64,000 nt of DNA from an uncultured Thermoleophilaceae bacterium (GCA_963771715.1 CAVYUQ010000018.1:60438-124437), one strand, 5' to 3'; positions 17,244 through 54,500 are shown, counted from the stretch's first letter. Translations and numbers: made by a program. The notes: generated from the sequence alone by a model not told the origin.

Positions 17244-17358
17244 TTTACCGATCGGGACATTTTACTCGATTATGGGCCTAAATCGGTGTGAGTTTTCCCG
17301 AGCGGGACAATTTCCCTTAATCAGAGGCAAACGGTGTGGCGTTGTCCCGCTCGGGAAA
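17244..17358. promoter_or_regulatory. three copies of a TYCCGNNCGGGACA-type operator-like site upstream of hipB
   Basis: TTTTACCGATCGGGACATTTT (17244-17264, abutting the hipB ATG), TTTCCCGAGCGGGACAA (17294-17310) and its perfect reverse complement TTGTCCCGCTCGGGAAA (17342-17358). Each site is internally dyad-symmetric. Confidence 0.45.
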
Positions 17359-17487
17359 GTTACGACGTGCGGGACCAAAGGCCTGCACCGACGCTCGAGG
17401 GACCGTCCGGCTCGCTGATCGCGGTTCCCGGGCCCGCGAGCAGCCTCTACCCGCAAGTGCCGCAAGCAGCACGCCGCACCCATTGAG

Positions 17488-24018: not shown

Positions 24019-25128
24019 ATGGACTCGCGCAGGCCGCTCGCCGCGGCGCTACTCGCGTTGGCCGCGCTCTGGCTCATGCCCGCGAGCGCGGAGGCGAAGG
24101 TCGTCTGGCTGTGCAAGCCGGGGCAGAGGGCGAACCCCTGCGAGCCGAGCCTGAAGTCGACGCTGTTCTCCCCGTCCGGCGAGCGCCTGGGCGTTCAGAA
24201 CACCAGGCGGGCGGCGAGGCGCAGGGCGGATTGCTTCTACGTCTACCCGACCGTGAGCGACCAGCAGCGGCCGCAGGCCACTCAGGTCGTGGACGACGTG
24301 CTGCGCTCGATCGCGCTCTACCAGGTCGCGCGCTACTCGCGCGACTGCCGCGTCTTCGCGCCGGTCTACCGGCAGTTCACCATCCAGGGGCTGCTCCAGC
24401 CGGACACGATCACGCCGGAGATGCGCGAGCAGGCATACGCCGACGTCCGCGAGGCGTGGCGCACCTACCTGCGCCGATTCAACAACGGCCGCGGCGTCGT
24501 GCTCGTGGGGCACTCGCAGGGCACGTTCGTGCTGCGCCAGCTGATCCGCGAGGAGATCGACCCGAGGCGGGCGATGCGCCGGAAGCTCGTGTCGGCGCTG
24601 CTGCTCGGCGGGAACGTTCTCGTGAAGAAGGGCAGCGACCGCGGGGGCGACTTCGAGCACGTTCGCGCGTGCCGCGCGCCCCGGCAGGTCGGCTGCGTGG
24701 TCGCGTTCTCGGGCTTCAACGGTCCCGTCCCGGCCGGCGCAGTGTTCGGACGCAGCGCGGATCCGGAGCTCCAGGTGCTCTGCACCGCTCCGGGCGCGCT
24801 ACGCGGAGGATCTGAGGCCGTGACGTCCATCTATCCCACGAAGCCGTTCGCCCCCAGCGTGATCGGCCTGGCGGCGAACGCCGCGGTCAGCGGCCTTCCC
24901 CGGCCGAAGACGCCCTGGGCGGAGTTCCGAGGCGCGTACTCCGCGCGCTGCTCGGACGCCGACGGGGCGAGCGTCCTTCAGCTAGAGCCGAGGGGAAGCA
25001 TCTTCAACCTCACCCCCGTCCCGGACGCGAACTGGGGCCTCCATCTCGCGGACGCCAACATCGCGCTCGGCAACCTCGCGAACCTCGTACGGCGCCAGAT
25101 CGCCGAACACGCGAGAGTGAGGAACTAG
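24019..25128 (+). CDS. secreted alpha/beta-hydrolase, DUF3089-like lipase
   Basis: Signal peptide MDSRRPLAAALLALAALWLMPASAEA and nucleophile-elbow context VVLVGHSQGTFVLRQLI. Intact 369 aa. Confidence 0.55.
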   Translation: MDSRRPLAAALLALAALWLMPASAEAKVVWLCKPGQRANPCEPSLKSTLFSPSGERLGVQNTRRAARRRADCFYVYPTVSDQQRPQATQVVDDVLRSIALYQVARYSRDCRVFAPVYRQFTIQGLLQPDTITPEMREQAYADVREAWRTYLRRFNNGRGVVLVGHSQGTFVLRQLIREEIDPRRAMRRKLVSALLLGGNVLVKKGSDRGGDFEHVRACRAPRQVGCVVAFSGFNGPVPAGAVFGRSADPELQVLCTAPGALRGGSEAVTSIYPTKPFAPSVIGLAANAAVSGLPRPKTPWAEFRGAYSARCSDADGASVLQLEPRGSIFNLTPVPDANWGLHLADANIALGNLANLVRRQIAEHARVRN

Positions 25129-25133
25129 GGGCC

Positions 25134-25161
25134 AGACCCCATTCATTCGTCTATGGGGTCT
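25134..25161 (+). terminator. hairpin after the DUF3089-like gene (9-bp stem AGACCCCAT/ATGGGGTCT, 10-nt loop)
   Basis: Perfect inverted repeat 6 nt after the TAG at 25126-25128. There is no U-tract. Confidence 0.3.
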
Positions 25162-25180
25162 CGCCCCTATTGGACGATCG

Positions 25181-34127: not shown

Positions 34128-35127
34128 TTAGGCGGCCGCCTCCGGCCGGCGCGCGGGCACCGCCGCGAACTCGGTCGTCCCGTCGATCGGCCCCGGCATC
34201 AGCTCGTCCGCGGTCGGGATCTCGATGCCGAGCACCTTCATGCGGCGCTTCAGCGTGCGGTAGGCGAAGCCGTAGATCTGGCGCGAGGTGTAGCCGTAGG
34301 AGACGTATCCGAGGCGTCCGTCACGTAGGGCGGCGCGAACACGTAGGCCGCCTTCGGGGCGAGGTCCAGGACCACCCGCTCGACGGTCGCGCGGTGGCGC
34401 TCGTCCTCGCGGATCGCGTCGCGCAGGAAGCGCACGCCGAAGGCCACGTGGCGGTGCTCGTCGCGCTCCACGAGGCCGAAGCCCTCGCAGAAGCCCGGGT
34501 ACATCGCGTGCTCGAGCATGTAGTCGCGGATCAGCGTCTGCCCGGTCACCGCCAGGAAGCCCTCCACGACCATGTGGTAGGTCGTGATGCCCTCGACGAA
34601 CAGGTCGAGGTCGTCGGGCTTCGCCTGGATCCGCTTCGCCACGCCGCGCAGGCCGTCGTCGAAGACCTCGCGCCAGGGCGAGAGCAGGATCTCCTCCACC
34701 TCGCGCATGCGGCCGCGGAAGTCGTCCGCGGAGAGGCACATCACCTCGGCGCCGAAGCGGTCGAAGAAGGCGGCGTGGCGGGCCTCGTCGACGAGCTGGG
34801 TCGCGAGGAACAGCTCGATCTCCCCGGTGGGGGCGGCCTGCAGGAAGGGCGCGAGGTCGGCCGTCACGCGCTCCTCGCCCACGTAGAAGGAGCCGAGGCT
34901 CCAGATCGTGCTCTCCTGCGCCTCGCGCGGGCTCGTGACCCACTGCTCCCTGTCCACCGAGAAGTCGAGCTCCGTGGCCTTCCAGTTCTGGCGCTCCCAG
35001 AGCGCGTAGAGCTGGCGGTAGTCGAGCAGCCCGTCGCCGTCCCGGTCGCCGCCCGGTCGCGTAAGGCCGGCGCGCTCCTCCTGGAGCCGGCGCTGCCGGC
35101 CTCGCGCTCGAGCTCGGCGTCGTCCAT
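34128..35127 (-). pseudogene. R2-like (ribonucleotide reductase small-subunit fold) diiron oxidase, about 2 frameshifts; N-terminal boundary uncertain
   Basis: LDYRQLYALWERQNWKATELDFSVD...ATQLVDEARHAAFFDRF...EGFLAVTGQ...GLVERDEHRHVAFGVRFL (ORF 34250..35335). The C-terminus YGYTSRQIYGFAYRTLKRRMKVLGI... is in ORF 34128..34943. Confidence 0.7.
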
Positions 35128-35821
35128 GCCCTGGGCGCGGGCGATCCAGCGGCCGAGCAGCGTGACCGGGTGGATCTCGCCGTCGATCATGGTGAGCTGG
35201 TTCTGCATCGCGATCGACGGGCTGACCTGCCCCGAGGCGAGCTGCTGGTAGGTGTCGAACGAGACCGTCGCCGTGCCGTCGTCGCGGCCGTCGGGCGCCG
35301 TCGCGGCTCACCTCGAGCGGCTCGCCGTCGTTCACGCCTCACGTACCAGGTCCGCCGCCCTCGCCGCGTCACGACGTACGCACCGTGAAGTCGTGGCCCT
35401 TCGTCCACTCCGGGTCGATCATGTACGGCAGAGAGCGGTAGAGGACGTCGGGGTCGAGCGTGCCGCCGTTCTCGACGACCGCGGCCAGGTCCAGCCCGCC
35501 CTCCGACATCTGCCTCAGCTTCATGCGCCTTGCTTCGCTTGCCGCGGATGCGGAGCTTGCCGCGCAGCATCAGGCCCGAGCGGGCCCGAGGCACCCGTGG
35601 CGAGCTCGACGAGCGTTCGCGGGTCGGTGCTGAGGCGGAAGTCCGGCTTCGCCGTCGCCCACGTGTGTGCTCTACCGAACCCCTCGACCTCGAGCGCGTA
35701 CGTAGACGTCGCGGCCGCCGGCCGCGGGCAGCGTCATCAGGATCAGCCGCGCGGCGAGCTCCGGGTCGTCCGCCGCGATTCGCCGCAGAGCCGCCCGCTG
35801 GCGGTTGCTCGCCTTGCTCAC
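35128..35821 (-). pseudogene. SCP2 (sterol-carrier-like) domain protein, at least 3 frameshifts; may be continuous with the R2-like gene
   Basis: The GTG at 35821 overlaps the MBL gene TGA. My manual translation gives ...AADDPELAARLILMTLPAA... / LMLRGKLRIRGKRSKA / MKLRQMSEGGLDLAAVVENGGTLDPDVLYRSLPYMIDPEWTKGHDFTV / SFDTYQQLASGQVSPSIAMQNQLTMIDGEIHPVTLLGRWIARAQG, spread over three frames. Confidence 0.45.
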
Positions 35822-36467
35822 TGAGCCTTCTCCATGATCCGCACCTCCACGGGAGCGTTCTCGGCGAACGTGCGCGCGTCGTGCTCGGTGCCGATGTGCG
35901 AGCCCCAGTGCATCGGGACCGCCACGCGCGGCTGGATGCGGCGGGCCGCCTCGGCGGCCTCCTGCGCGGTCATCACGTAGACGCCGCTCACCGGCAGCAG
36001 CGCCACGTCGACCCCGGTGACGCTGTCCATCTCCGGAATCACGTCGGTGTCGCCGGAATGGTAAAGCCGCTCCCCGCGGACGTTGAGCTCGTAGCCCACC
36101 CATCCCGCATCACGCGGATGAAAGGGCTTGCCGTCGGCGTCGCGCTTCGAAGTGTTGTAGGCCGCGACGGCGCGACGTGGACGCCGCGCACGAGCTCGTC
36201 GTCGAGCATCTCGCCCGGGCCGATCCGGTGGACCTGGCCGCTCACGCGCTCGGCCACCGCCGCCGGGCCGACGAGCCAGGTCTCGCGCTTCGAGAGCCGC
36301 TCGACGTCCTGCGGCGAGAAGTGGTCGTAGTGGCCGTGGGTGACGAGGATCAGGTCGGCCGGCGGGGCGTCCTCGGCGACGCGGTAGGGGTCGATGTAGA
36401 CGAAGGCGCGGCCGACGGCGACCCGGAAGCCCGAGTGGCCGAGCCATTCGAGGGCGTCGAGGAGCAT
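35818..36467 (-). pseudogene. MBL-fold metallo-hydrolase (UPF0173-like), one frameshift near 36170
   Basis: MLLDALEWLGHSGFRVAVGRAFVYIDPY...DLILVTHGHYDHFSPQDV (ORF 36039..36467). Then GERLYHSGDTDVIPEM...ALLPVSGVYVMTAQEAAEAARRIQPRVAVPMHWG (ORF 35818..36447). Confidence 0.8.
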
Positions 36468-36507
36468 GCGGCGAAGGTTGGCAGGTCCGTGCGGAGCGCC
36501 TCCTCAG

Positions 36508-36600
36508 GCGAACGACGGCATTGAAGGGGGGTCCGACGTCAGTTAGACCGCGTATACGCGGTCAAATCGACGGAAGACCCCCCTTTACGCCGTCGTTCGC
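36508..36600 (+). repeat. nested-palindrome intergenic element, copy A (93 nt)
   Basis: Perfect 12-nt terminal inverted repeats GCGAACGACGGC (36508-36519) / GCCGTCGTTCGC (36589-36600). Inner clamp GGGGGGTC (36526-36533) / GACCCCCC (36576-36583). Central perfect 18-nt palindrome GACCGCGTATACGCGGTC (36546-36563). It resembles copy B at 44682-44784. Confidence 0.75.
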
Positions 36601-36616
36601 CCCGAAAGCGCGGCCC

Positions 36617-39023
36617 TCAGGCCTCCGCCGGCCACCCGGTCCGGCGCCAGAGCTCCGCGACATCCGCACCGCCGTCCCGCTGCCTTCGTGCGTCAGCTCG
36701 ACGGAGTCCATGAGCGCCTGCATCAGCGGCAGGCCGTTGCCCGCGGTAGCGCGGCGGGCCGTCCGGGCGCTCGATCCAGTGGCCCTCGTCGCGCACCGTC
36801 AGGACCACGCGCCCCTCGTCGCAGCTCGGCGTCGACCCACAGCCGCCCGGCCCGAACGAGTAGCCGTGCTCGATCGAGTTGGAGCAGGCCTCGTGGCAGG
36901 CGATCTGGATCGACCTCGACCGCCTCGCCCGCGGCGCCGGCGTCGCGGAGCCAGCGGCCCAGCTCGCGCCGCATCTGGCCGAGCTCGGTCGGGGTCCGAG
37001 CGGCAGCTCGAGGTGCAGCGGCGGCGGCGCGGTCGGGAGCGCGCGCAGCGCCAGCACGCGCGATGTCGTCGTTCGCCGGGTGGATCGCGAGCATCGCGTC
37101 CACCAGCCGGTCGCAGAGCTCGTCCGGGTGGCACGGGATCCTGCGAGGCCGCCACCCGCAGCGCCTCGAGGCCCACGTCGATCGAGACGCCGCGCTGCTC
37201 GACGAGGCCGTCCGTGTAGAGGACCAGCGTCGAACCCGGCTCGAGCTCGATGTCGACCTCGCTGTGCGCTCGGGCTCTCGAACACGCCGAGCGGCGGGTT
37301 CGGGGCGCCCTCGAGGTAGCCGGCCTCGCCGTCCGGGCTGATCACGAGCGGCGGCACGTGGCCGGCGCTCGCGAGCGCGCGGTGGAGCGGTCGGGCTCGA
37401 CCACCAGATACAGCAGCGTCGCCATCTGGCCGCCCTCGAGGCTGCGCACGAGCCGGTCGAGCCGGTCGAGCACGCCCGCGGGCGGGTGCCCCTCGAGCGC
37501 GTAGGCGCGCATCGCGTGGCGCAGCTGCCCCATCAGCGCGGCCGCGCCGATGCCCGTGCCCGACCACGTCGCCCATCGCCACGCCGAGGCGGCCGCCCTC
37601 GAGCTGGAGCGCGTCGTACCAGTCGCCGCCCACGTCGGCGCCACCCGGCATGTAGCGGGCGGCCACCTGGACGCCCTCGAGCTGCGGCAGCCGGTCGGGC
37701 AGCAGGCTGCGCTGGAGCGTCTCGACGTTCGACAGCTCGCGCTCGTACGCGCGCGCGTGCTCGATCGCGAGGCCGGCGCGGTCGGCCATCAGGATCAGGA
37801 GGCTCTCCTCCTCGAGCGTGAAGCGGCGCGCCGCGCGCGCGCCGACCTCCACCGCCCCGGCGAGCCGGCCCCTGACCATCAGCGGCGCGGCCATGACCGA
37901 GCGAGACGCCCGCGGCCTCCGAGCGCCGGATCGAGGCCGGCGCCGCGAGAAGTCGGCGATCGTGACGGGCCGGCTGCGCTCGACGACCTCCGCGAGCGCG
38001 CTCGGCGAGCGCCACCGGCGTCGCCGGCCTCGAGCCTCGAAGCCGCGCGGCCGCGCCCACGGTGAGCCGCTGCGTCGTCCTCGCTGCGTCGCGCAGCAGG
38101 ATGCGCGACGGCGTCCGCCCCGAAGACCTCGCGGACGCGCTCGACGAGCACGCTGGAGCAGCTCGTCCAGCTCGAGGTGCCCGAGCGCCGCCTCGGTTAC
38201 CTGCTGCAGCTTCGCGATCGTCTGGACCACGGCCTCCGCCTCGGCGCGCGCGGCGCGCTCCGCCTCGGCGCGGCGCTGCTCGGTCACGTCGACGACCTGC
38301 CAGATGTAGCCCTGCGGGCGGTCGTGGCTGTCGGCGGTGAGCGAGACGCTCACGATCGCGTGCACGAGCTCGCCGTCGTTGCGCATGAAGCGCTTCTCCG
38401 ACTGGTGCGAAGAGCGGGCGGTCGTGGAGCGAGCCGCGCGCACGGCGTCGCGCTCGCGTCTCGCGGTCGTCCGGGTGCACGAGGTCCCAGAGCGGCTGCG
38501 CGGAGCAGCTGCGTCTGCGAGCGGCCGAGCAGCTCGCAGAGCGCGTCGTTGACCTCGAGCCAGCGCCCGTGGACCGTGCTCAGCCCCATCCCGATCGGGG
38601 CGCCCTCGAAGGCGGCCCGGAAGCGCTCCTCGGACTCGCGCAGCTCGGCGCTCTTCTGCTGCGAGCTCGAGCAGCATCGCCACCTTGGAGCGCAGCATGT
38701 CGGGGTCGACCGGCTTGAGCATGTAGTCGACGGCGCCGGCCGAGTAGCCGCGCGTGATCTGCTCGGTGTCGGCGTCGCCGGCGGTGAGGAAGATGACCGC
38801 GGTGTCCTCGTGGCGGTCGCGGCGCTTGATCAGCTCGACGGTCTGGAAGCCGTCGAGCCCGGGCATGCGCACGTCCATCACGATCACGCCGAAGTCGTCG
38901 TGGAGCAGCCGCTGGAGCGCCTCCTCGCCGGACGGCGCGGTGACCACCTCGCGGCCGAGCGGCTCCAGCACGGTGCGAGCGCCACCAGGCTCTCCGGCTG
39001 GTCGTCGACGACGAGTATGGCGC
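36617..39023 (-). pseudogene. REC-PAS-GAF-PP2C(SpoIIE)-RsbW-like HATPase multidomain regulator (OsaC-like output protein), at least 10 frameshifts; start codon unresolved
   Basis: REC: [15 protein letters not shown] / [50 protein letters not shown]...YMLKPVDPDMLRSKV. PAS: SEERFRAAFEGAPIGMGLSTVHGRWLEVNDALCELLG...EKRFMRNDGELVHAIVSVSL. GAF fragments. PP2C: SLLPDRLPQLEGVQVAARYMPGGADVGGDWYDAL...GVAMGDVVGHG...ASAGHVPPLV. HATPase N-box: IQIACHEACSNSIEHGY...VVLTVRDEG. The pieces are spread over all three minus frames. Confidence 0.8.
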
Positions 39024-39026
39024 CGC

Positions 39027-40186
<1,160 letters not shown>

Positions 40187-40199
<13 letters not shown>

Positions 40200-43100
40200 C
40201 CGCTCGCCGGCGGGCAGGTCGGCGCGGTCGTCCGTGAGCGGCTCGGGCAGCGCGGCGCTCTCGGCGCGCCGCCGCGACCTTGTGGCCGCCAGCTGACGGC
40301 GGGACGGTCCCCTCGAGCGCCTGCGTCGGGCGGCGCCGGCGCGGTGCTCGGCAGGAAGAGCGTGAACGCCGAGCCCTCGCCCTCGGTGCTGTCCACATGG
40401 ATCTCGCCGCCCAGCAGGCGCGCGATCTCGCGGCTGATCGAGAGTCCGAGCCCGGTGCCGCCGAAGCGGCGGCTGATCGAGCCCTCCGCCTGCTGGAACG
40501 CCTCGAAGATCAGGCGCAGCTTGTCGGGCGGGATGCCGATGCCGGTGTCGATCACGGAGAACGCAACGACGCTCTCTGAGCGGGCGAGCGCGTCGGTGCC
40601 GAAATGCGCGTCCGGCGCCGGGCGTCCGATCTTGAGCCGGACGGAGCCCGAGTCGGTGAACTTGAACGCGTTCGAGAGCAGGTTCTTCAGCACCTGCTGG
40701 AGGCGCTGCTCGTCGGTCGAGATCTGCTCCGGCGCGTCGGGCGCCAGGACGATCGAGAAGTCGAGGCCCTTCTCGTCCGCGATCGGCGAGAACGAGCGCT
40801 CCACGAACTCGCGCACCGACCTCAGCTCGGTGCGGCCGGCGTGCACGTCCATCTTCCCGGCCTCGACCTTGGACAGGTCGAGGATGTCGTTGATCAGGGC
40901 GAGCAGGTCCGAGCCCGCGTTGTGGATCGTCGCGGACGCGTCGACCTGCTTCGCGGTGAGGTTCCCCGTCTCGTTCGCCGACAGCACCTTGGAGAGGATC
41001 AGCAGCGAGTTCAGCGGCGTGCGCAGCTCGTGCGACATGTTCGCGAGGAACTCGGACTTGTACTTCGAGCTCAGCGCGAGCTGCTCCGCCTTCTCCTCCA
41101 GTGAGCTGCGGGCCAGCTCGATCTCGCGGTTCTTGATCTCGATGTCGCGGTTCTGGCGCTCGAGCTGCTCAGCCTTCTCCTGGAGCTCCTCGTTCGTCGC
41201 CTGCAGCTCCATCTGCTGGCGCTGGAGCGCCTCGGACTGCTCCTGTAGCTCCTGCGACTGGGACTGGGACTGCTGGAGCAGCTCCTCGGTCCGGACGTTC
41301 GCGGTGATCGTGGCGAGCACGACGCCGATCGTCTCCGTCAGCTGGTCGAGGAACTGGAGGATGATCTCGCTGAACGGCGTGAACGACGCCAGCTCGATCA
41401 CGGCCAGCACCTGCTCCTCGAAGAGCACCGGGATGACGATGATGTCGCGCGGCGCCGAGCTGCCGAGGCCCGACCCGATCTGCGCGTAGTCCGCCGGCGG
41501 GTCGGCGATCCGGATCGGCTTCTTCTCGTGGGCGGCCTGGCCGACCAGGCCGTCGCCGGGGGCGAAGCGCGGCGTGAGGGCGTCCTTCTTCGTGTAGCCG
41601 TAGCTCGCGAGCAGCATCAGGTCGTAGCCGGCCCCGTGCTCGTCGTGGTCGGCGAAGAAGAACGCGCCGTGCTGGGCGCCGACCGCCGGCGACAGCTCGG
41701 ACATGATCAGCTGCGAGACCGTCTCGAGGTTGCGCTGGCCCTGCATCAGGCCCGAGATCCGCGCGAGGTTCGTCTTCAGCCAGTCCTGCTCCTCGTTCTG
41801 GCGGGTCGTCTCGCGCAGGTTGGCGATCATCTGGTTGATGTTGTCCGAGAGGTCCGCGACCTCTCCGCTCGCCTCCACCTCGATCGCCCGCGTCAGGTCG
41901 CCCTGGGTCACCGCGGTGGACACCTCGGCGATCGCGCGCACCTGAGTCGTCAGGTTCGACGCGAGCTGGTTCACGTTCTCCGTGAGCCCGCGCCAGGTGC
42001 CGGACACGCCCTCGACCTGCGCCTGGCCGCCGAGCTTGCCCTCGGTGCCGACCTCCTTGGCCACTCGCGTGACCTCGTCGGCGAACGAGGACAGCTGGTC
42101 GACCATCGTGTTGAGCGTGTCCTTCAGCTCCAGGATCTCGCCCTTGGCGTCGACCGTGATCTTCTGGGTGAGGTCGCCGCGCGCCACGGCCTGTGCGACC
42201 TGGGAGATGTTGCGGACCTGGTCGGTCAGGTTCGAGGCCATGAAGTTCACCGACTCGGTGAGCCCGCGCCACGTGCCCGAGACGCCGGCCACCTCGGCCT
42301 GGCCGCCGAGCTTGCCCTCGGTGCCGACCTCCTTGGCCACTCGCGTGACCTCCGCGGCGAACGAGTTGAGCTGGTCGACCATCGTGTTGATGGTCTCCTT
42401 CAGCTCCGCGATCTCGCCCTTGGCGTCGACGGTGATCTTCTTCGACAGGTCGCCGTTCGCCACGGCCGTCGTGACCTGAGCGATCGAGCGCACCTGGTCG
42501 GTCAGGTTCGAGGCCATGAAGTTCACCGACTCGGTGAGGCTGCGCCACGTACCGGCCACGTCCTCGACCTCGGCCTGGCCGCCGAGCTTGCCGTCCGTGC
42601 CGACCTCCTTGGACACGCGCGTGACCTCGGCCGCGAACGAGTTGAGCTGGTCGACCATCGTGTTGACGGTGTTCTTCAGCTCGAGGATCTCGCCCTTGGC
42701 GTCGACGGTGATCTTCTTCGACAGGTCGCCGTTCGCCACCGCGGTCGTGACCTCGGCGATGTTGCGGACCTGATCGGTCAGGTTCGAGGCCATCGAGTTC
42801 ACGTTCTCCGTGAGTCCGCGCCAGGTGCCGGACACGTCCTCGACCTCGGCCTGGCCGCCGAGCTTGCCCTCGGTTCCCACCTCGCGCGCCACGCGCGTGA
42901 CCTCGGCAGCGAACGAGCGCAGCCGGTCGACCATCTTGTTGATCGTGTCCGCCAGCGCGGCCACCTCGCCCTTGGCCTCGACGGAGATCTTCTGCGAGAG
43001 GTCGCCGTCGGCGACCGCCGTCGAGACCTGCGCGATCGAGCGCACCTGGTCGGTCAGGTTGGAGGCCATGAAGTTCACCGACTCGGTCAGGTCGCGCCAC

Positions 43101-44566
43101 GTTCCGGAGACGCCCTTCACCTCCGCCTGGCCGCCGAGGATGCCCTCGGTGCCGACCTCGCGCGCCACGCGCGTGACCTCGTCCGCAAACGAGGAGAGCT
43201 GGTCGACCATGGTGTTCACGGTCTCCTTCAGCTCCGCGATCTCGCCCTGCACGTCCACGGTCACCTTCTGCGAGAGGTCGCCCTCGGCCACCGCGGTCGT
43301 CACCTGGGCGATGTCGCGCACCTGGCTCGTGAGGTTCGAGGCCATCAGGTTCACGGAGTCCGTCAGGTCCTTCCAGGTGCCCGCCACGTTCGGGACCTCC
43401 GCCTGGCCGCCGAGCTTGCCCTCCGTTCCGACCTCGCGCGCGACGCGCGTGACCTCGTCGGCGAACGACGAGAGCTGGTCGACCATCGTGTTCGTCGTGA
43501 CCTTGAGCTCGAGGATCTCGCCCTTCACGTCCACGGTGATCCGCTGCGTCAGGTCGCCGCCGGCCACCGCCGTCATGACCTGGGCGATGTTGCGGACCTG
43601 GCTCGTGAGGTTCGAGGCCATTCCGTTCACCGAATCCGTGAGGTCCTTCCACGTGCCCGAGACGTTCGGCACCTCGGCCTGGCCGCCGAGCTGGCCCTCG
43701 GTTCCGACCTCGCGCGCGACGCTCGTGACCTGCTCGGCGAAGATCGCGAGCGTGTCGGTCATCTCGTTCATCGTGTCGGCCAGCTCGGCGACCTCGCCCT
43801 TGGCCTCCACGGTGATCTTCTGGCTCAGGTCGCCGCGCGCGACGGCCTGCGCGACGTGCGAGATGTTCCTCACCTGGTCGGTGAGGTTGGACGCCATGCC
43901 GTTCACCGACTCCGTGAGCGCGCGCCAGGTCCCCGACACGCCCTTCACCTCGGCCTGGCCGCCGAGCTTGCCCTCGGTGCCCACCTCGCGCGCCACGCGC
44001 GTGACCTCGTCCGCGAACGACGAGAGCTGGTCGACCATCGTGTTCACGGTGGTGCCGATCCGGAGGAACTCGCCCTTCACCGGCTGGCCTTCGATGGTGA
44101 GAGCCATCTTGCGGTCGAGGTCGCCGTCGGCGACCGCGTCGAGCACCGACGCAACCTCGGTGGTCGGGCGCACGAGGTCGTCGATGAGCGCGTTCAGCGA
44201 CTCGACGCTCGAGTTCCAGCCGCCGCCCGCGGAGCCGAGCGACGCGCGCTGGTCCATCCGTCCCTCGCGGCCGATCACGCGGCGCATGCGGCCGAGCTCC
44301 TTCTCCATGCTCCCGTTCATCGCGACGAGGTCGTTGTAGGCGGCCGCGATCTCGCCGAGCAGGCCGCGGCGGCGCCGCGAGAGGCGCCGCGAGAAGTCGC
44401 CGTCGCGCGCGGCGACCAGGGCGTCGAGGATCTCCTCGAGCACGGCCGGCTCGGTGCCGGCGCCGTTCCCGGCAGAGGGCTGTTCGGTGGCGGTTCGGCC
44501 GGCCCCATTCGCCTTGCCGGGCGTCGAGCGCCTCGTGGCGGACCCTTCGGTCTTGGTACCGGCCAA
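40187..44566 (-). CDS. soluble poly-HAMP / GAF / coiled-coil / HisKA-HATPase sensor histidine kinase (OsaA-like); the true 3' end is probably further downstream
   Basis: The start is proposed at TTG 44566, preceded by GGAGGAAGG; the upstream part of ORF 40187..45523 is antisense to the enoyl-CoA hydratase gene. Eight 92-aa double-HAMP units (FA.EVTRVA.EVGTEG.LGGQA.V..V.GTW..LT.SVN.MASNLT.QVR.I..V..AVA.GDL..KI.V...GE) have extra HAMPs at both ends. GAF (...[14 protein letters not shown]...[19 protein letters not shown]). A Q/E-rich coiled coil. H-box [15 protein letters not shown]; G2 [14 protein letters not shown]. There are no TM segments. The frame is intact for 4.38 kb. Confidence 0.9.
41826..44032. 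repeat. eight tandem ~276-bp coding repeats (double-HAMP units)
   Basis: The period is visible at the DNA level, e.g. GGTCGGTCAGGTTCGAGGCCATGAAGTTCACCGACTCGGTGAG recurs. Boundaries are calculated from the protein repeat positions. Confidence 0.8.
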
Positions 44567-44681
44567 CCTTCCTCCTCGGACCAGTGCTGCGTTTGAAGCC
44601 CAGGGGCCAGCTGGGCCGATGGTTTTCGGCGCCTGGAAGGAAACCACCGTCTTGCATAACGCGCAAGCGCGTGGTGGACAG

Positions 44682-44784
44682 ATGAACGACGGCACTGAAG
44701 GGGTGCTTCGGGGGTCCGAGGCAATCTGACCGCGTATTACGCGGTCAAGTGACCTAACACCCCCCTTACCGCTGCCGTTTACGC
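44682..44784 (+). repeat. nested-palindrome intergenic element, copy B (103 nt, more degenerate, with a 10-nt insertion)
   Basis: It shares with copy A, in the same order and orientation: GAACGACGGCA(C/T)TGAAGGGG, GGTCCGA, GACCGCGTAT(T)ACGCGGTCAA, CCCCC(C)TTAC and GCCGT. The central dyad is GACCGCGTA-T-TACGCGGTC. Confidence 0.65.
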
Positions 44785-44791
44785 TGGCGCC

Positions 44792-45577
44792 ATGAACGTC
44801 ATCTGGGAACAGGACGGCGGCATCGGCCGCGTCACCCTCAACCGCCCGGACTCGCTGAACGCCTGGACCGAGGAGTTCGGCCAGGAGCTCAAGCAGGTCA
44901 TCACCGGCGACGCCGCCGACGAGGGCGTCCGCGCGGTGCTGATCACGGGCGCGGGGCGCGGCTTCTCGTCCGGCGCCGACCTGAAGGCCGGGTTCGACCC
45001 CGATCCCGACGACGGCATGCCGGACATCCGCAAGGAGCTGACCGACGTCTACCACCCCATCATCGCGGGCGTGCGGCGGCTCGAGAAGCCGGTCGTGGCC
45101 GCCGTCAACGGCCCGGCGGTCGGGATCGGCGCGTCGCTCGCGTTCGCGTGCGACCTCGTCCTGGCTGCCGAGTCGGCCTACTTCGGGCTCGCCTTCGTGA
45201 ACATCGGCCTCATGCCCGACGGCGGCTCGACGCTGTTCGTGCCGGCGGCCGTGGGCAAGGCGCGGGCGTTCCAGATGGCCCTGCTCGGCGAGCGCGTCCC
45301 GGCGGAGCGGGCGCTCGAGTGGGGGCTCGTGAACCACGTCCACCCGGACGACCGGCTCATGGACGAGGCGAACGCGCTGGTGGCGAAGCTCGCGGAGGGC
45401 CCCACACGCTCGTACGCCGGCTCGAAGCAGGCGCTCAACCGGATGCTCTACCCGGACCTCGACGGGCAGCTCGACCTGGAGGCCGAGCTTCAGCACGCGC
45501 TGGCCAGGACGCAGGACTTCCAAGAGGGCGTGACGGCCTTCGTCGAGAAGCGGGAGCCCGCCTTCCAGGGGGTCTGA
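44792..45577 (+). CDS. enoyl-CoA hydratase/isomerase family protein
   Basis: Intact 261 aa: [25 protein letters not shown]...[15 protein letters not shown]...[20 protein letters not shown]...[18 protein letters not shown]. Confidence 0.9.
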
Positions 45578-45629
45578 CCCCGTGGGAGACCCGGCCGCAG
45601 CGCTCGCGCCAACACGGGGTCAGACCCCC
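45568..45629. repeat. perfect 17-bp inverted repeat / long hairpin (GGGGGTCTGACCCCGTG ... CACGGGGTCAGACCCCC, 28-nt spacer)
   Basis: The arms are at 45568-45584 and 45613-45629. The left arm contains the hydratase TGA (45575-45577). It ends 2 nt before the first possible ctaC start. It could be a terminator, an attenuator or a REP-like element. Confidence 0.6.
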
Positions 45630-45631
45630 GA

Positions 45632-46579
45632 GTGCCATCGGGCACGAAGTGGAGCCCGTTCCGGGGCCGGAGATATGATGCCGCGGCCTTGCCCGCCGGC
45701 ACGCCAAGACGCCTGCTCCTGACCGCCCTCGGTGCGGTCTTTCTTGCGTCCCTGATCTGGGCTCCGTCCGCGTTCGCTGACGCGCTCACGCCCGAGTCGG
45801 GCGGGTCGCAGAACGCGGACGACATCGACACGCTCTACAAGCTCACGTTCTACATCGGGATCGTGATCTTCCTGCTGGTCTGGGGCACGCTGATCTGGTC
45901 GCTCGTCAAGCACCGCGCCCGGCGCGGCGGGCGGGCCGACCAGATCCGCGGCAACACGCCGCTCGAGATCGGCTGGACCCTGGGCGCCGCGTCGATCCTC
46001 GTGGTGCTGACCGTCGTCACGTTCCTCTACCTCGACGACATCGAGAACCCGCCCGCCTCGGGCCCCAACGGGCTCAGCGCGTCACAGGCGCAGTTCGCCT
46101 CGATCGACCAGCCCGACCCGCCGAAGGACGGCGGCCCGGTGCTCAGCATCCGCGTGAACGGCCAGCAGTACATCTGGCGCTACGACTATCCCGGCGAAGG
46201 CCAGCTCTTCTCCTACAACGAGATGGTGGTCCCCACCGACACCACGGTCGTCCTCGAGATCGAGGCCTCCGACGTGATCCACTCCTGGTGGATCCCCAAG
46301 TTCGGCCCGAAGGCGGACGCCGTGCCGGGCCACGTGAACGAGAGCTGGTTCAAGGTCCCGGCGGGCAGGGAGGGCGTCTACCGCGGCCAGTGCGCGGAGC
46401 TGTGCGGGCCGAACCACGCCGACATGCGCGCCTCGGTCCGGGCGGTGACGCCCGACGAGTTCCAGAGCTGGGCGCAGGACAAGCGTGACGAGATCCAGGC
46501 GGCCGGCGAGGCGCTCGCCGAGCAGCGCAAGCAGCGCGAGGGGTCCGAGGAGAACGCTAGTGCGCGCCCGGAGATCGTC
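45632..46579 (+). CDS. ctaC: cytochrome c oxidase subunit II (CuA); no in-frame stop before ctaD as sequenced; start uncertain
   Basis: Signal/TM LLLTALGAVFLASLIWAPSAFA plus two TM helices. CuA site DVIHSWWIPKFGPKADAVPG...GQCAELCGPNHADM. Confidence 0.85.
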
Positions 46580-48232
46580 ATGCACGGGCTGCGCCCGCAG
46601 CAGAGCGGCTGGCTCCGCTGGCTGACGACGACCGACCACAAGAAGATCGGGATCCTCTACCTGGTCGCCACCTTCATCTTCTTCATCCTGGGTGGCGTCG
46701 AGGCGCTGATCATGCGCCTCCAGCTGGCGCAGTCGAGCAACACGCTCGTCAGCCCGGAGACCTACAACGGGCTGGTCACGATGCACGGCACGACGATGGT
46801 CTTCCTGTTCGTCGTCCCCGTGCTCGCGGGCTTCGGCAACTACATGGTCCCGCTGATGATCGGCGCGCGGGACATGGCCTACCCGAAGCTCAACGCGCTC
46901 TCGTTCTGGCTGCTCCTGTTCGGCGGCGTCGCGTTCTACGCGAGCATCTTCTTCGAGCCCCCGCAGGCCGGCTGGACGATGTACCCGCCGCTCTCCGACG
47001 ACGCGTTCAGCGGCGGAGGCGGCGTGGACGCCTGGATCTTCCTGATCCACCTCACGGGCCTCTCCTCGATCCTCGGCGCGATCAACTTCATCGCGACGAT
47101 CCACAACATGCGCGCACGCGGCATGGGCTGGGGCCGCATGCCGCTGTTCATCTGGTCGATCCTCGTCTACAGCTACCTGCTGGTGGCCGCGCTGCCCTCG
47201 ATCGCGGCCGGCGTGACGATGCTCCTGACGGACCGCCACTTCGGCACCGGCTTCTTCGATCCGGCCGCCGGCGGCGACCCGCTGCTGTGGCAGCACCTGT
47301 TCTGGTTCTTCGGGCACCCCGAGGTCTACATCATGATCCTGCCCGTCTTCGGGATGATCTCGGAGATCCTGCCGGTGTTCGCCCGCAAGCCGATCTTCGG
47401 CTACAAGGCGATCGCCGCGTCCACGGTGGCGATCGCGTTCCTCGGCCTGCTCGTGTGGGCGCACCACATGTTCACGACGCCCACGCCGACCGTGGTGCTC
47501 GCCTTCTTCATGCTCGCGTCGTTCACGATCGCGGTGCCCACGGGCATCAAGATCTTCAACTGGATCGCGACGCTCTGGCGCGGCCAGATCGTGATGAAGA
47601 CGCCGCTCCTGTTCGCGGCCGCGCTCCCCGCCCTGTTCACGATCGGCGGGATCTCGGGCGTGATCCTCGCGATCTTCCCGGTGGACTGGTACCTCCACGA
47701 CACCTACTTCGTCGTGGCGCACTTCCACTTCGTGCTCTTCGGCGGCTCGGTCTTCGGGATCTTCGCCGGCCTCTACTACTGGTTCCCGAAGATGACCGGC
47801 CGGCTGATGTCGGAGTTCCTCGGAAAGCTCTCGTTCGGCCTCATGTTCGTGGGCTTCCTCGGGACCTTCCTCGTCCAGCACTCGATGGGGCTCGAGGGCA
47901 TGCCGCGCCGCATCTACGACTACGACGACGCGCTCGGCGTGGAGGTCTACAACCTGATCTCGACGATCGGCGCGTTCATCCTCGGCGTGGGCGTGCTGGT
48001 GACCGTCGTCAACGTGCTTCTGAGTCTCAAGAACGGGCAGAGGGTGGGCAATGACCCATGGCGCGGCAACACGCTTGAGTGGTTCACCAGCTCGCCCCCG
48101 CCGCCCAACAACTTCGACGTGGTCCCGCGCGTGCGCAGCGTGGAGCCGATGAAGGACATCCGCCGCGAGGTGGCCGCCGCGGCACGGCCGGCCGAGACCG
48201 TCGCGCAGCCCGTCGCGCCGCGCAGCCTGTAA
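46580..48232 (+). CDS. ctaD: cytochrome c oxidase subunit I
   Basis: The ATG at 46580 is preceded by GGAG (46570-46573) with a 6-nt spacer. WLTTTDHKKIGILYL...GGDPLLWQHLFWFFGHPEVYIMILP...HHMFT...YFVVAHFHFVLFGG. Confidence 0.9.
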   Translation: MHGLRPQQSGWLRWLTTTDHKKIGILYLVATFIFFILGGVEALIMRLQLAQSSNTLVSPETYNGLVTMHGTTMVFLFVVPVLAGFGNYMVPLMIGARDMAYPKLNALSFWLLLFGGVAFYASIFFEPPQAGWTMYPPLSDDAFSGGGGVDAWIFLIHLTGLSSILGAINFIATIHNMRARGMGWGRMPLFIWSILVYSYLLVAALPSIAAGVTMLLTDRHFGTGFFDPAAGGDPLLWQHLFWFFGHPEVYIMILPVFGMISEILPVFARKPIFGYKAIAASTVAIAFLGLLVWAHHMFTTPTPTVVLAFFMLASFTIAVPTGIKIFNWIATLWRGQIVMKTPLLFAAALPALFTIGGISGVILAIFPVDWYLHDTYFVVAHFHFVLFGGSVFGIFAGLYYWFPKMTGRLMSEFLGKLSFGLMFVGFLGTFLVQHSMGLEGMPRRIYDYDDALGVEVYNLISTIGAFILGVGVLVTVVNVLLSLKNGQRVGNDPWRGNTLEWFTSSPPPPNNFDVVPRVRSVEPMKDIRREVAAAARPAETVAQPVAPRSL

Positions 48233-51566: not shown

Positions 51567-54500
51567 CCCTGCGACAGCTCCCACCTGAGGACAGACGCAC
51601 CTGACGCCCCGAGGTATCCGTCGATCGCGATGTAGTACTCGTCGCCCGCCTCTGCCGCGAGCTCCACCCTGCTGTATTCGCCCACCACGTCGGCGTCGTC
51701 GTTGGCGGCGACTTCCTCGAGTTCGCCGAGGCTCGACCCGCGGTAGACGGCCAGAAGCGTGTCGAAGCGGCTCCCGTAGGTGTCGAACACCGCCGCCCCG
51801 GCATGAGGTGCCTGCCAGCGGTACCAGATGGACGCGCCGCCGGGCCTGTCGGCATGGACCGGCTCGTCCGGTTCGCGCCCCGCTCCCCTGTTGGTGCCTC
51901 GCACCGTTCCGCTGGACCCGGAGATCCGGGCCGCGTCGGCAAAGTCGTGGTTGCCAGGCGGGGCGACGAGAACCCAGTTGAGGGCGACATCCCCCGAGCG
52001 ACCTTCGTAGCCGGCCACCGCGATCGCGTACTCGGTTCCCTTCTCTGCCGCAAAGCGGACCAGGCTCAGGACGCCGAGCCCGGGCGCATCGTCGTTGGCC
52101 GCGACCGGCTCCAGGTCATCGATCGCATCGCCTCTGTAGACGGCAAGCAGCGTGTCGAAGCCGCTCCCCACCGTGTCGAACGTCGCCTCGCCGTCCCCGG
52201 GGGACCGCCAGCGGTACCAGATGGATCGACCGCCGACCGTGTCGGCGTGGAGCGGCTCCCCCTCCTGTTCGCCTGCCCCGCGGTTGTGCCCGTGTGCCGT
52301 GCCGTGCTCGCCGTGGATCGCCTCGGCCGCCTCGAAGTCGTCGTTCGACGGCGGCGAGTGCCACCTGAGCACGATCTCGCCCATCTGCCCTTCGTCCCCG
52401 TCAACCGCAATGAGGTACGTCTCGCCCTCGCTCGCCTCGAAGCGAACGGGCGCCGAAAAGTCCGGCGGGGAGTTGGAGGCCACCTCCTCCAAGGTCTCCA
52501 TTTCGGACCCGCGATAGACCGCGAGAAGCGTGTCGAAGCCGCTCCCCGCCGTCTCGAACGTCACTTCACCGGCAACGGGCGCTCGCCACCGGTACCAGAC
52601 CGACGGCCCACCGGCACTACCGGCGTGATCCGGTTCACCCTGCTCTTTGGTCGCGCCTCGGTTATGCCCCTCCAGGAGCCCGCTCGGGTTCTCGATCTCC
52701 TCGGCTGCCTCGAGCCTGTCGTTCGGCGGGGGGTAGTACCACCCGAGCCACACCGCACCGGTTGCGCCGTTGTAGCCGTCGATTGCGATGACGTACTCGA
52801 CCGACTCCTCGGCGACGATCGTGACCTCGCTGTGGGCCGAGCTGTGGAGTGCGTTGCGGTCGGCGTCGACCTCGGTCAGCCCGCCCTCCGCCCGAGTGCG
52901 GTAGACGGAGAGCAAGGTCTCGAAATCCATGCTGCCGGAACTGAAGGTGACGATGCCGTCTGCCGGGGCACGCCAGCGGTACCAGATGGACGCGCCGCCG
53001 GGCAGGCCCGCGTGCTGAGGCTCCCAGTCCTCGCTCGAGGCGCCCGTCGTATTCCCGTCGGGGACGTACCCGAAACGGCCCTCCAGCGGCTGCGCGGTGG
53101 CCAGCGAGCCGTTCGCGGGCGGTCCCCAGTTCAGCACCACCGCGCCCGTGGCCCCCTCGTGGCCGTCGACCGCGATCAGGTACTCCTCCCCCTCCATCAC
53201 ATCGAGGTCGACGCGGCTCTGGAGGCCGAGCTCGTCGTCGTCGTCGTTCGACTCGATCTCCTCGAGCTCCTTCATGCTCGGGCCCTGATACACCGCGAGC
53301 AGGGTGTCGAAGCTGCTCCCGGCGGTGTTGAACGTCGCCCTGCCCGTCGCCGGCGCCGTCCAGCGGTACCACACGGATGCCCCGCCGGCCATGCCCGCGT
53401 GCTGGCGCTCGCCGGCCTCCCTCTTGGCGTGCCGGTTGTGCCCGTGCACGCTGCCGCTCGCGCCCCGGAGCGGGAAGGCCGCGCTCAGCTCGTCGTTGAG
53501 GAGCCAGCTGAACTGGATCGCCTCGTCCTCGGGGTCCGCGCTGTCCTTGAAGCCGTCGACCATGATCCGGTAGTCCGTGCCCGCCTTGGCTTCGAAGCTG
53601 AAGCGCCCGCTCGCGTGGCCTGGGGTCTCACGGTCCACCGGTGTCAGCCGGTCTCCATGGACATACACGGCGATTGACGTCTCCCAGCCTTTGGCGTCCG
53701 CGCCGAACCAGACCCTGCCGGTGTCCTCCGCCTTCCAGGCGTACCACCGTGCCGCCCTGCCCGGGCTCACCAGCTCGAGCTTGGGAGTGGGGATTCCCGA
53801 GACCGTCTCGGATCCGCTCGGACCCTCGATCGGGTGGAGCGTGGACCGCCCACCGTCCGCGAAGAGCTTCGCGAACGGCACCGCGAGCGCCAGGCAGCGC
53901 TGGACCGGCCCTCTCGTCGCGCTCTGCTGGAAGGCCGTCTCCATCTCCTGCGTAGTGATGACGAGAGCGAGGAAGATCGCCGTGGAGATGACCGCCATGA
54001 CGCTCGCGACCCACAGATGCGGCCCGGTGGGCACGGCGAACCCGAACCAGGTGTCGAGCGTCGAGACCGTCGCGTGGCCGGTCCAGATACGCGCGCGTTC
54101 CGCGGAGATCGCGATCCCCGCGATCGTGTAGATGTAGAGGGTCGACCCGATCAGGACTGCGCAGACGAGGAGGAGAATGCGGGTGACCATTTGGAGCCCG
54201 AAGGTGCCCCTCAGGTGCGCGCCGACGTAACTGACGTAGTAGTCGAACGCCGGCGCCCGGTAGGACTCTTCAAGCGTCCGCGTGGCCGCCGCGGCGTCGA
54301 GGTCCTCGGGCTTCGAGGAGCTCCCGCCGAACACTCGGCGCCAGGCCCGGCTGACATCCGCGCCAAGGCGACCGAGCCCGGTGATACGGCGGCTCTTCAG
54401 CGCGATCTCGTCGATCACCTCTCGTACCGCCTCCGAGGGCCGCTCCGCGACCGTGGCCGCCGCGCGCTTGACGACGTCGTCGAACTGCTGAACCAGCAGC

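Follow-up and report, generated by a model that had tools for sequence, protein, structure and literature searches.

The two genes of a poly-HAMP signalling operon in an uncultured Thermoleophilaceae bacterium (GCA_963771715.1, CAVYUQ010000018.1:60438-124437; the whole stretch of 64,000 nt is called the window, and all coordinates are positions in it unless a contig is named) are bracketed by two copies of a palindromic element. Copy A lies next to the gene of an MBL-fold hydrolase (MBL) and copy B next to the divergent gene of an enoyl-CoA hydratase/isomerase (ECH). This arrangement raises the question of what such a pair of repeats represents. The first-pass annotation of the sequence offered three candidates: a mobile repeat resembling miniature transposable elements with inverted repeats (MITEs) or repetitive extragenic palindromic sequences (REPs), a structured RNA or terminator/insulator pair, and binding sites of a common regulator; it also suggested that the 8-kb operon may have moved as a unit between the copies. 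Of the three, the MITE/REP-like repeat is favoured by the existence of dispersed copies, by their extragenic siting, by the retained base pairing and by the polymorphism of copy B. With a probability of roughly 0.6, we consider A and B to be members of a previously undescribed, dispersed family of compound palindromic repeats of Thermoleophilaceae-like Actinomycetota, similar in kind to REP, ERIC (enterobacterial repetitive intergenic consensus) and MITE sequences, and not the ends of a mobile operon. Literature searches found no description of this repeat family.

Architecture of the repeat

Within the window there are exactly two occurrences of the 20-mer GAACGACGGCAYTGAAGGGG (36510-36529 and 44684-44703), against a chance expectation of 0.01, and none of 100 shuffled sequences contained two matches. 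The alignment of A with B (143 aligned columns) exhibits a mean column identity of 80%. The ordered blocks shared by the two copies, which were found at the coordinates originally reported, are far above chance, and both copies are thus members of one family. Profiles of the half-unit and of the outer block match only A and B within the 64 kb (the half-element matches in copy A run from 36507 to 36554 on the plus strand and from 36601 to 36555 on the minus strand), and a third copy was not found. The interiors of the window copies are centred on GACCGCGTA(T)TACGCGGTC.

All the palindromic levels ascribed to copy A were located in its sequence (Table 1). They comprise the 12-nt termini at 36508-36519 and 36589-36600 (GCGAACGACGGC and GCCGTCGTTCGC, respectively), which constitute terminal inverted repeats, the clamp, in which GGGGGGTC (36526-36533) pairs with GACCCCCC (36576-36583), and the central 18-nt dyad; one more G-C pair lengthens the palindrome to 36507/36601. 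The calculated fold is very stable on both strands (-72.5 kcal/mol, z = -11.6 on the plus strand; -76.6 kcal/mol, z = -10.3 on the minus strand). Copy B folds much more weakly (-52.7 and -51.9 kcal/mol, z = -3.4 on each strand): its outer blocks and central dyad are present, and its inner arms (GCAATCT / AAGTGAC) are unpaired. The blocks reported for copy B are real, but its last ~7 nt as initially delimited (TTTACGCT, 44778-44785) belong to the native flank, as they are found at the empty sites of relatives. The distances to the neighbouring genes were reproduced, with copy A lying 40 nt away from the ATG of MBL (36467) and 16 nt away from the stop codon upstream of it (36617), and copy B separated by 115 nt from the start of the kinase gene (44566) and by 7 nt from the ATG of ECH (44792).

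For the analysis of the family as a whole, each arm was read inward to the centre and the resulting half-units (16 from 8 copies) were aligned. All 16 proved mutually alignable, i.e. the element, 90–115 nt in size, is composed of a left half and the reverse complement of a right half, each of about 45–55 nt. The outer block, which is the conserved part in all copies, reads GCGAACGACGG followed by CATTGARGGGG or CGGTRAAGGGG, and both variants contain a stop codon. Inside it lies a G-run that pairs with the C-run of the opposite half, accompanied in some copies by a small hairpin insert, followed by an inner arm of the type CAGTT, CAATCT, CACTT or CGATT and, innermost, by half of the central dyad. 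All four left/right combinations of inner arms were seen; in the B-type copies (CAATCT ... AAGTG) the inner arms do not pair with each other. The interior is variable yet self-complementary. Compensatory changes are present at 8 of the 19 consensus pairs, and the core stem in L089 (labels of the form Lnnn denote retrieved comparison contigs) is changed on both sides, from CG to UA. The folds and the compensatory changes together confirm that stem pairing is kept in the copies despite their divergent sequence. The central GTATTAC was considered as a nick site of a rolling-circle Rep protein and dropped, as copy A has no such motif and the motif is base-paired.

Searches of Rfam with the whole window returned zero matches reaching the gathering threshold. 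In sensitive local scans the sole overlap with copy A was a generic long-hairpin match to the plant family MIR1858 (33 bits vs the threshold of 137), and the region of copy B gave three weak matches, all downstream of the copy (12–15 bits vs thresholds of 36–44).

Sites A and B in related genomes

Syntenic contigs were retrieved via homologues of the ECH and MBL proteins. The A site, defined as the interval from the stop codon of the response regulator (RR) gene to the MBL start, is filled in every lineage in which the operon stands beside MBL. Seven distinct versions of it were found (the window, L089/L095, L096-98, L099/100, L101, L102/103 and L104), and each of them forms an extended hairpin on folding (z between -4 and -10). 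Their alignment shows the MBL leader and outer blocks to be conserved, with GCATTGA invariant in 8 orthologous A-site copies. The interiors are unalignable between lineages, those of L096, L099, L102 and L104 being quite different, and they differ far more than the adjacent intergenic DNA does. The idea that the window and its closest relative, L101, differ by a 'flip-flop' inversion of the interior was considered and abandoned as unprovable, since the two inner arm types are too similar to be oriented.

The B site, from the kinase start to the ECH start, is filled in the window, L089/90, L099/100, L101 and L104, and empty in L088, L092, L096 and L001, all of which retain the operon. Empty sites thus exist in relatives, at the B site, as a presence/absence polymorphism. 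The identity of the kinase N-terminus to that of the window amounts to 94–98% in the filled lineages and in L096, and to 87–90% in L088, L001 and L092, so that B is filled in 5 of 6 lineages of the closer group and in 0 of 3 of the more distant one. The simplest history suggested by this distribution would be a single gain of B in the ancestor of the close group. In L096, compared with L104, the element is absent together with 14 nt of ancestral flank, between two CGTT repeats; judged from these sequences, this is a secondary loss of B by deletion between the CGTT repeats. Because the ancestral flank is missing as well, CGTT is to be regarded as the microhomology of the deletion rather than as a target duplication. 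Slippage across a palindrome classically ends in such a loss between short direct repeats.

The A-site and B-site copies of L089 have interiors that match exactly over 44 nt and are inverted relative to each other, and both copies contain GACCGTG...CACGGTC where the window has GACCGCG...CGCGGTC (the L089 core is GACCGTGTAWTACACGGTC). Outside L089 there are lineages whose A and B copies differ, which indicates that homogenisation within a genome is frequent, not universal. The MBL–ECH interval itself is a hot spot of replacement: L002 (6900-10004) carries EamA-LysE-MocR genes and no kinase operon, and in L001 (8005-9713) the kinase is separated from ECH by an inserted AT-rich hipBA toxin-antitoxin pair. 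The poly-HAMP operon is vertically inherited at this position, and its reading is unchanged by the repeats.

Copies beside other genes and the surrounding locus

A genome scan for the central dyad, with one genome per species, yielded 58 places, most of which are single coding-region matches or plain terminators. The full architecture of the window type was found in L025 and L037, from a Thermoleophilaceae metagenome-assembled genome (MAG), and in L023, from another Actinomycetota MAG. The copies most similar to those of the window come from the Thermoleophilaceae MAG, which has two exact-core copies. A relative's MBL protein with 100% identity is assigned to Thermoleophilaceae by NCBI. The metagenome scan added three further window-type copies on soil contigs (L065, L072 and L079), as well as more copies of a sister family. 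The latter is a 50-nt perfect palindrome with the same extended core, present in at least 11 copies in the fragmented Actinomycetota MAG CP_BM_ER_R9_11, and it shares with the window type the same two alternative core flanks, ACTT or ATCT. Several of the sister-family contigs begin or end within the repeat, as expected of a multi-copy sequence.

The neighbours of the window-type copies are mutually unrelated and include a PKD-domain protein, an MFS transporter, a beta-lactamase-like protein, a HAD hydrolase, a zinc-ribbon protein, a GGDEF protein and a methyladenine glycosylase. At 7 of the 8 independent sites the copy lies at most 16 nt after a stop codon or overlaps it; the genes of L037 and L065 end with the TGA/TAA that belongs to the outer block. 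The intergenic location claimed for A and B extends to the family, in the sense that the copies are extragenic or overlap a stop codon only, and further copies that adjoin unrelated genes are found in related genomes and metagenomes. In viral contigs, queries made from the core, from the outer block and from the arm of the sister family gave chance coding matches or none, and plasmid records searched with copy A gave no match.

Some of the core matches were rejected. Those in Burkholderia, Streptomyces, Nocardia and others are single coding-region matches and do not belong to the family, and those in Rothia, Treponema, Flavobacteriaceae and Clostridia represent ordinary terminators or an unrelated multi-hairpin element. 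The multi-hairpin element occurs in gut Clostridia contigs (L027, L059, L061, L067, L068, L071, L073, L075, L081-L085 and L087), measures ~150 nt and is centred on TTGACCGCGTA(A)TACGCGGTCAA; its flanking hairpins are quite different, and a long inverted repeat, AGAGACGTTGGGG...CCCCAACGTCTCT, encloses them on the outside. A relationship of this element to the actinobacterial family is improbable. In L024, two inverted sister-family copies (27-44 and 2413-2430), 2.4 kb apart, are exact reverse complements including their flanks. A gene resembling those of RAYT transposases was sought between them; reading by eye shows an acyl-CoA-dehydrogenase-like open reading frame (ORF) and a 306-aa ORF of unclear type. 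In L095, the solitary sequence CTCCTTCAATGCCGTAGTCCGAC (13235-13254) is situated in a convergent intergenic region beside an unrelated small hairpin, and may be a relic of an outer block.

The hairpin at the 3' end of ECH (Table 1) had been thought to belong possibly to the same family. Its stem is real, but the family profiles give no match, and the G-run/C-run is all that is shared. Relatives differ in whether they possess it behind ECH (absent in L089, L090, L091 and L002). A related GGGGTCWGACCCC hairpin is found in L092 (about 1250-1300) and in the window at 25126-25168. Together with the hairpin at 45568-45629, these represent a second type of hairpin that overlaps a stop codon, built on GGGGTCWGACCCC; the first 10 nt may resemble the start of Tn3-family inverted repeats.

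Table 1. Features of the repeat-flanked locus, in coordinates of the 64,000-nt window (. in the strand column, no strand assigned)
Feature	Position	Strand	Description
Copy A	36507..36601	.	near-perfect 95-nt nested palindrome between the RR/PP2C stop codon and the MBL start
Copy A, left outer block	36507..36532	+	GGCGAACGACGG-CATTGAAGGGGGG; part kept across lineages
Copy A, central dyad	36546..36563	.	GACCGCGTATACGCGGTC; perfect, 18 nt
Copy A, right outer block	36576..36601	-	minus-strand reading GGCGAACGACGG-CGTAAAGGGGGGTC; TAA inside
Copy B	44684..44779 (about)	.	degenerate family member in the divergent kinase/ECH intergenic region
Copy B, central dyad	44728..44746	.	GACCGCGTATTACGCGGTC; dyad of copy A with one extra loop base (T)
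Native flank 3' of copy B	44780..44794	+	TACGCT + GGCGCC + ECH ATG; copy B abuts
RR-PAS-GAF-PP2C(SpoIIE)-HATPase gene	36617..38977 (~38977)	-	last of the two operon genes; frameshifted in the window
Poly-HAMP-GAF-HisKA-HATPase-receiver hybrid kinase gene	39030 (~)..44566	-	3' quarter split over several frames in the window
MBL-fold hydrolase gene	35821..36467	-	downstream of copy A; one frameshift in the window
Enoyl-CoA hydratase/isomerase (ECH) gene	44792..45577	+	beside copy B
Separate hairpin	45568..45629	.	17-bp perfect stem, overlaps the ECH stop codon; outside the family

The signalling operon is indeed bracketed by A and B, but it consists of two genes and not of several, as revealed by Pfam domains and comparison with orthologues; the kinase is a single gene in relatives (1845–1849 aa), and its HAMP repeats of 276 nt are found, as expected, at 41813-44137. 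Within 34185-48232 the kinase, RR-PP2C, MBL and RNR/SCP2-like genes are each frame-split in the window and intact in relatives, and COX2 and COX1, two genes in relatives, read as a single 866-aa ORF (45632-48232). This points to an indel-prone assembly or to decay of the genes, and the homopolymer lengths of the G/C clamps should not be over-read. Core chromosomal genes, such as those of aconitase, cytochrome oxidase and the pentose-phosphate pathway, make up the remainder of the window, and no mobility genes were seen among the window ORFs scanned.

The kinase leader of ~115 nt (44567-44681) is kept in all relatives, whether the B site is empty or filled. It contains a hairpin, GCCCAGGGGCCAGCTGGGC followed by GGTTTT (44598-44625), with no match in Rfam, and may be a cis-regulatory leader. 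On the other side of copy B, TTTACGCT upstream of ECH (44778-44794) is conserved at filled and empty B sites, and the arrangement of TTTACGCT, 6–8 nt and ATG is conserved in several lineages; in other lineages an alternative ECH start is preceded, with equal spacing, by TAGGGT. TACGCT-N6-ATG has the appearance of a -10 element belonging to a leaderless ECH gene. Elsewhere in the window, an unusually AT-rich intergenic stretch (17260-17400) contains a perfect 17-nt inverted repeat, TTTCCCGAGCGGGACAA ... TTGTCCCGCTCGGGAAA, with the arms 31 nt apart, and a 1203-aa minus-strand ORF with a PPC domain contains 4–5 tandem-like repeats of 378–393 nt (51701-53443).

Possible nature of the repeats and comparison with known systems

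At the DNA level, the element would be a non-autonomous REP/ERIC/MITE-like repeat, with B gained, and lost in L096 by a deletion across the palindrome. The interiors would be overwritten or swapped between copies, and the candidate mechanisms include transposition by some enzyme, gene conversion between copies and self-correction of the palindrome. At the RNA level, transcripts of the upstream gene would carry the element at their 3' end, folded into a very stable hairpin, and the family probably forms 3'-end RNA hairpins. Copy A could mark or protect the 3' end of the kinase-RR transcript and separate this transcript from the MBL gene, and copy B, directly upstream of the probable -10 element of ECH, could alter the ECH promoter. 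In none of 8 copies that follow co-directional genes is the sense-strand fold the less stable of the two (it differs from the antisense fold by 0.1 to 6.6 kcal/mol), and G-U pairs are commoner on the sense strand in 7 of the 8; this asymmetry is suggestive of a signal at the RNA level. Consensus scans for promoters and terminators at A and B found neither type inside either element.

Several observations weigh against this interpretation. Four of the 8 sense-strand cases are A-site orthologues and hence non-independent; the sense-strand excess of G-U pairs could be explained by a strand-biased mutation pattern, and the palindromic compensation could reflect template-switch repair within palindromes, not selection. 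No U-tract follows the hairpins, and a terminator scan finds no site at A on either strand. Neither a transposase, a RAYT nor a related insertion sequence (IS) was seen among the window genes examined or beside the other copies. A consistent target-site duplication was not found: no direct repeat is present at A, B, L037, L065 or L099, no duplication of fixed length flanks the copies examined, and none brackets the A...B unit. The empty B sites of the outgroup already read GAACGA(C/G), in agreement with the first bases of the outer block, so that an ancient loss of B, instead of a gain, is conceivable. Finally, the two copies in the 64 kb both flank one operon. The copy counts rest on the window, ~250 kb of syntenic DNA of relatives and the fragmented MAGs, and in the window and the syntenic DNA full copies occur solely at the A and B sites, the exception being the marginal possible relic of one terminal block in L095. 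Such confinement to the two borders of an operon is unlike a freely proliferating element, and some tie between the elements and this locus is conceivable.

Could A and B, then, be the two termini of a composite mobile unit, or of a cassette, by which the poly-HAMP operon was brought in between MBL and ECH? The variable content of the MBL–ECH interval in L002 and L001 would agree with this, as would the presence of the elements at both borders of the interval as the sole copies in the syntenic region, bar the marginal relic. However, the kinase stands beside ECH with its conserved leader in L088, L092, L001 and L096, all of them without B; B occurs in none but the closest relatives (at least 94% identity of the kinase N-terminus); the two copies vary in orientation and type between lineages, those of L089 being mutually inverted; no direct repeats or bracketing duplication flank the unit; and no mobility gene was found in the window genes scanned. 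The operon was thus in place before B arrived and persists where B is absent, so it was not brought in by a unit of which the repeats are the ends. The proposal that the 8-kb operon moved as an A/B-bracketed unit is largely refuted, and we assign it hardly any probability. It is also very improbable that the element is the site of a dimeric DNA-binding protein (a regulator or recombinase) with an 18–22-bp core, TTGACCGCGTA(N)TACGCGGTCAA, whose A/B pair would regulate or loop the operon. Such a role is compatible with the perfect dyad core common to A, B and the sister family of another MAG, with the recurrence of the same symmetric variant, GACCGTG...CACGGTC, in both copies of L089, and with the two core flanks (ACTT / ATCT) that recur in both families in the manner of a two-arm protein site; yet 90–115 nt of palindromy go far beyond the needs of a protein site, and at the orthologous sites of L096, L099, L102 and L104 it is not the core but the outer blocks that are kept. 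The element is also found beside PKD, MFS, HAD-hydrolase, GGDEF and DNA-glycosylase genes, which are functionally unrelated, and the response regulator of the operon has a PP2C/HATPase output without a DNA-binding domain. Together with the conservation of the outer block rather than of the dyad, this makes a common regulator unlikely.

The siting next to stop codons at 7 of 8 sites, the occupancy of the A site in every operon-bearing lineage, the retention of a hairpin though the interior sequence is replaced, and the sense fold at least as stable as the antisense fold in 8 of 8 cases are also what would be expected of an immobile, host-encoded structural RNA (a terminator, 3'-end stabiliser or insulator) under selection, whose other copies would have arisen by descent or by duplication together with neighbouring DNA. 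We consider this explanation unlikely, though not negligible. The occurrence of the same 20–25-nt outer blocks at unrelated loci of different genomes is hard to account for without copying of the element itself, and interiors at orthologous sites diverge far beyond the nearby intergenic DNA. Moreover, the genes on either side of the B site are divergent, which leaves a terminator there without an obvious role, and the site is dispensable, being empty in four lineages; nor is there a U-tract. A further and decidedly speculative scheme, which we think improbable, is a two-tier system, in which the conserved outer hairpin (outer blocks and G/C clamp) would be a fixed landing pad and the loop would be refilled or exchanged, time and again, with small palindromic core units by a dedicated enzyme specific for the structure, of the HUH/Y1 type or a recombinase. 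The 50-nt repeat of CP_BM_ER_R9_11 would be one such core unit standing alone, and the exchange would lead to orthologous A-site copies with kept ends and unrelated interiors. If true, the system would be an actinobacterial counterpart of the partnership between REPINs and RAYTs; we know of no partnership of this type described in Actinomycetota.

The preferred interpretation, a dispersed family of compound palindromic repeats, invites comparison with repeats of known kinds. In the survey of Di Nocera et al. 2013 (PMC3733652), REPs are units of 20–40 bp with a GTAG or CGTC tag, mostly arranged as head-to-head dimers downstream of genes; Actinobacteria/Actinomycetota are nowhere mentioned in that survey. 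REP/BIME/REPIN sequences, which are mobilised by the RAYT tyrosine transposases, include the GTAG- and CGTC-tagged super-families of the survey. The repeats described here resemble REPs and REPINs in being extragenic palindromes situated mostly just 3' of coding regions, in forming head-to-head inverted dimers able to fold as one long hairpin, with heterodimers of unit variants being common, and in that they are thought to act as RNA hairpins. Their central hairpin, with a 9-bp stem that opens with two A-T pairs and a loop of 4–5 nt, is also similar to that of the CGTC REPs (dimensions according to PMC3733652). They differ in the lack of an unpaired GTAG/CGTC tag (there is no GTAG beside the A or B hairpins, and CGTC occurs in two inner arms of copy A, but at a position neither conserved nor unpaired), in the unit of about 45–55 nt instead of 20–40 nt, and in that the outer block and not the hairpin is the most conserved part. 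In addition, no RAYT gene was seen in the window genes scanned, the host phylum is Actinomycetota, and the copy number is apparently low. REPs and REPINs are present in tens to hundreds of copies per genome.

The ERIC (or IRU) sequences of Enterobacteriaceae are imperfect palindromes of about 100–130 nt, located in transcribed intergenic regions in low to moderate copy number; they are retained at orthologous sites across species, include variants with internal insertions and are believed to form hairpins in mRNA. The size, the palindromy, the retention at orthologous sites and the internal insertions are shared with the family described here, whereas the sequence is unrelated, and the interior is conserved in ERIC and fast-changing here. 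Bacterial MITEs, such as Correia/NEMIS of Neisseria, RUP and Nezha, are small and non-coding, possess terminal inverted repeats, exhibit presence/absence polymorphism, and can provide terminators or change the promoters of their neighbours. Our repeats share with them the terminal inverted repeats, the small size, the lack of coding capacity and the polymorphism, and differ in that no consistent target-site duplication and, in the DNA examined, no parent IS with matching ends were found, and in that the entire element is palindromic. Finally, the hairpin-only ('I-shaped') terminators of high-G+C Gram-positive bacteria consist of a strong G+C-rich hairpin directly after the stop codon, without a U-tract, as is also the case here; such terminators are normally unique, whereas the outer blocks of this family are found again at loci unrelated to each other, and the genes that border copy B are divergent.

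Since the dimeric plan and the siting are shared with known repeats and the tags and a fixed target duplication are absent, the elements are best regarded as a probable new family of a known kind, outside the named families. Such a family would extend the REP/ERIC-like palindromic repeats to uncultured soil Thermoleophilaceae. The combination of conserved ends with fast-changing, self-complementary interiors at orthologous sites is an unusual pattern, and the family could be useful as a natural system in which the maintenance, exchange and deletion of palindromes in bacteria can be followed. For genome annotation, it may be of practical value that these hairpins mark the 3' ends of genes, can sit in promoters, as does copy B by the ECH start, and break metagenome assemblies.

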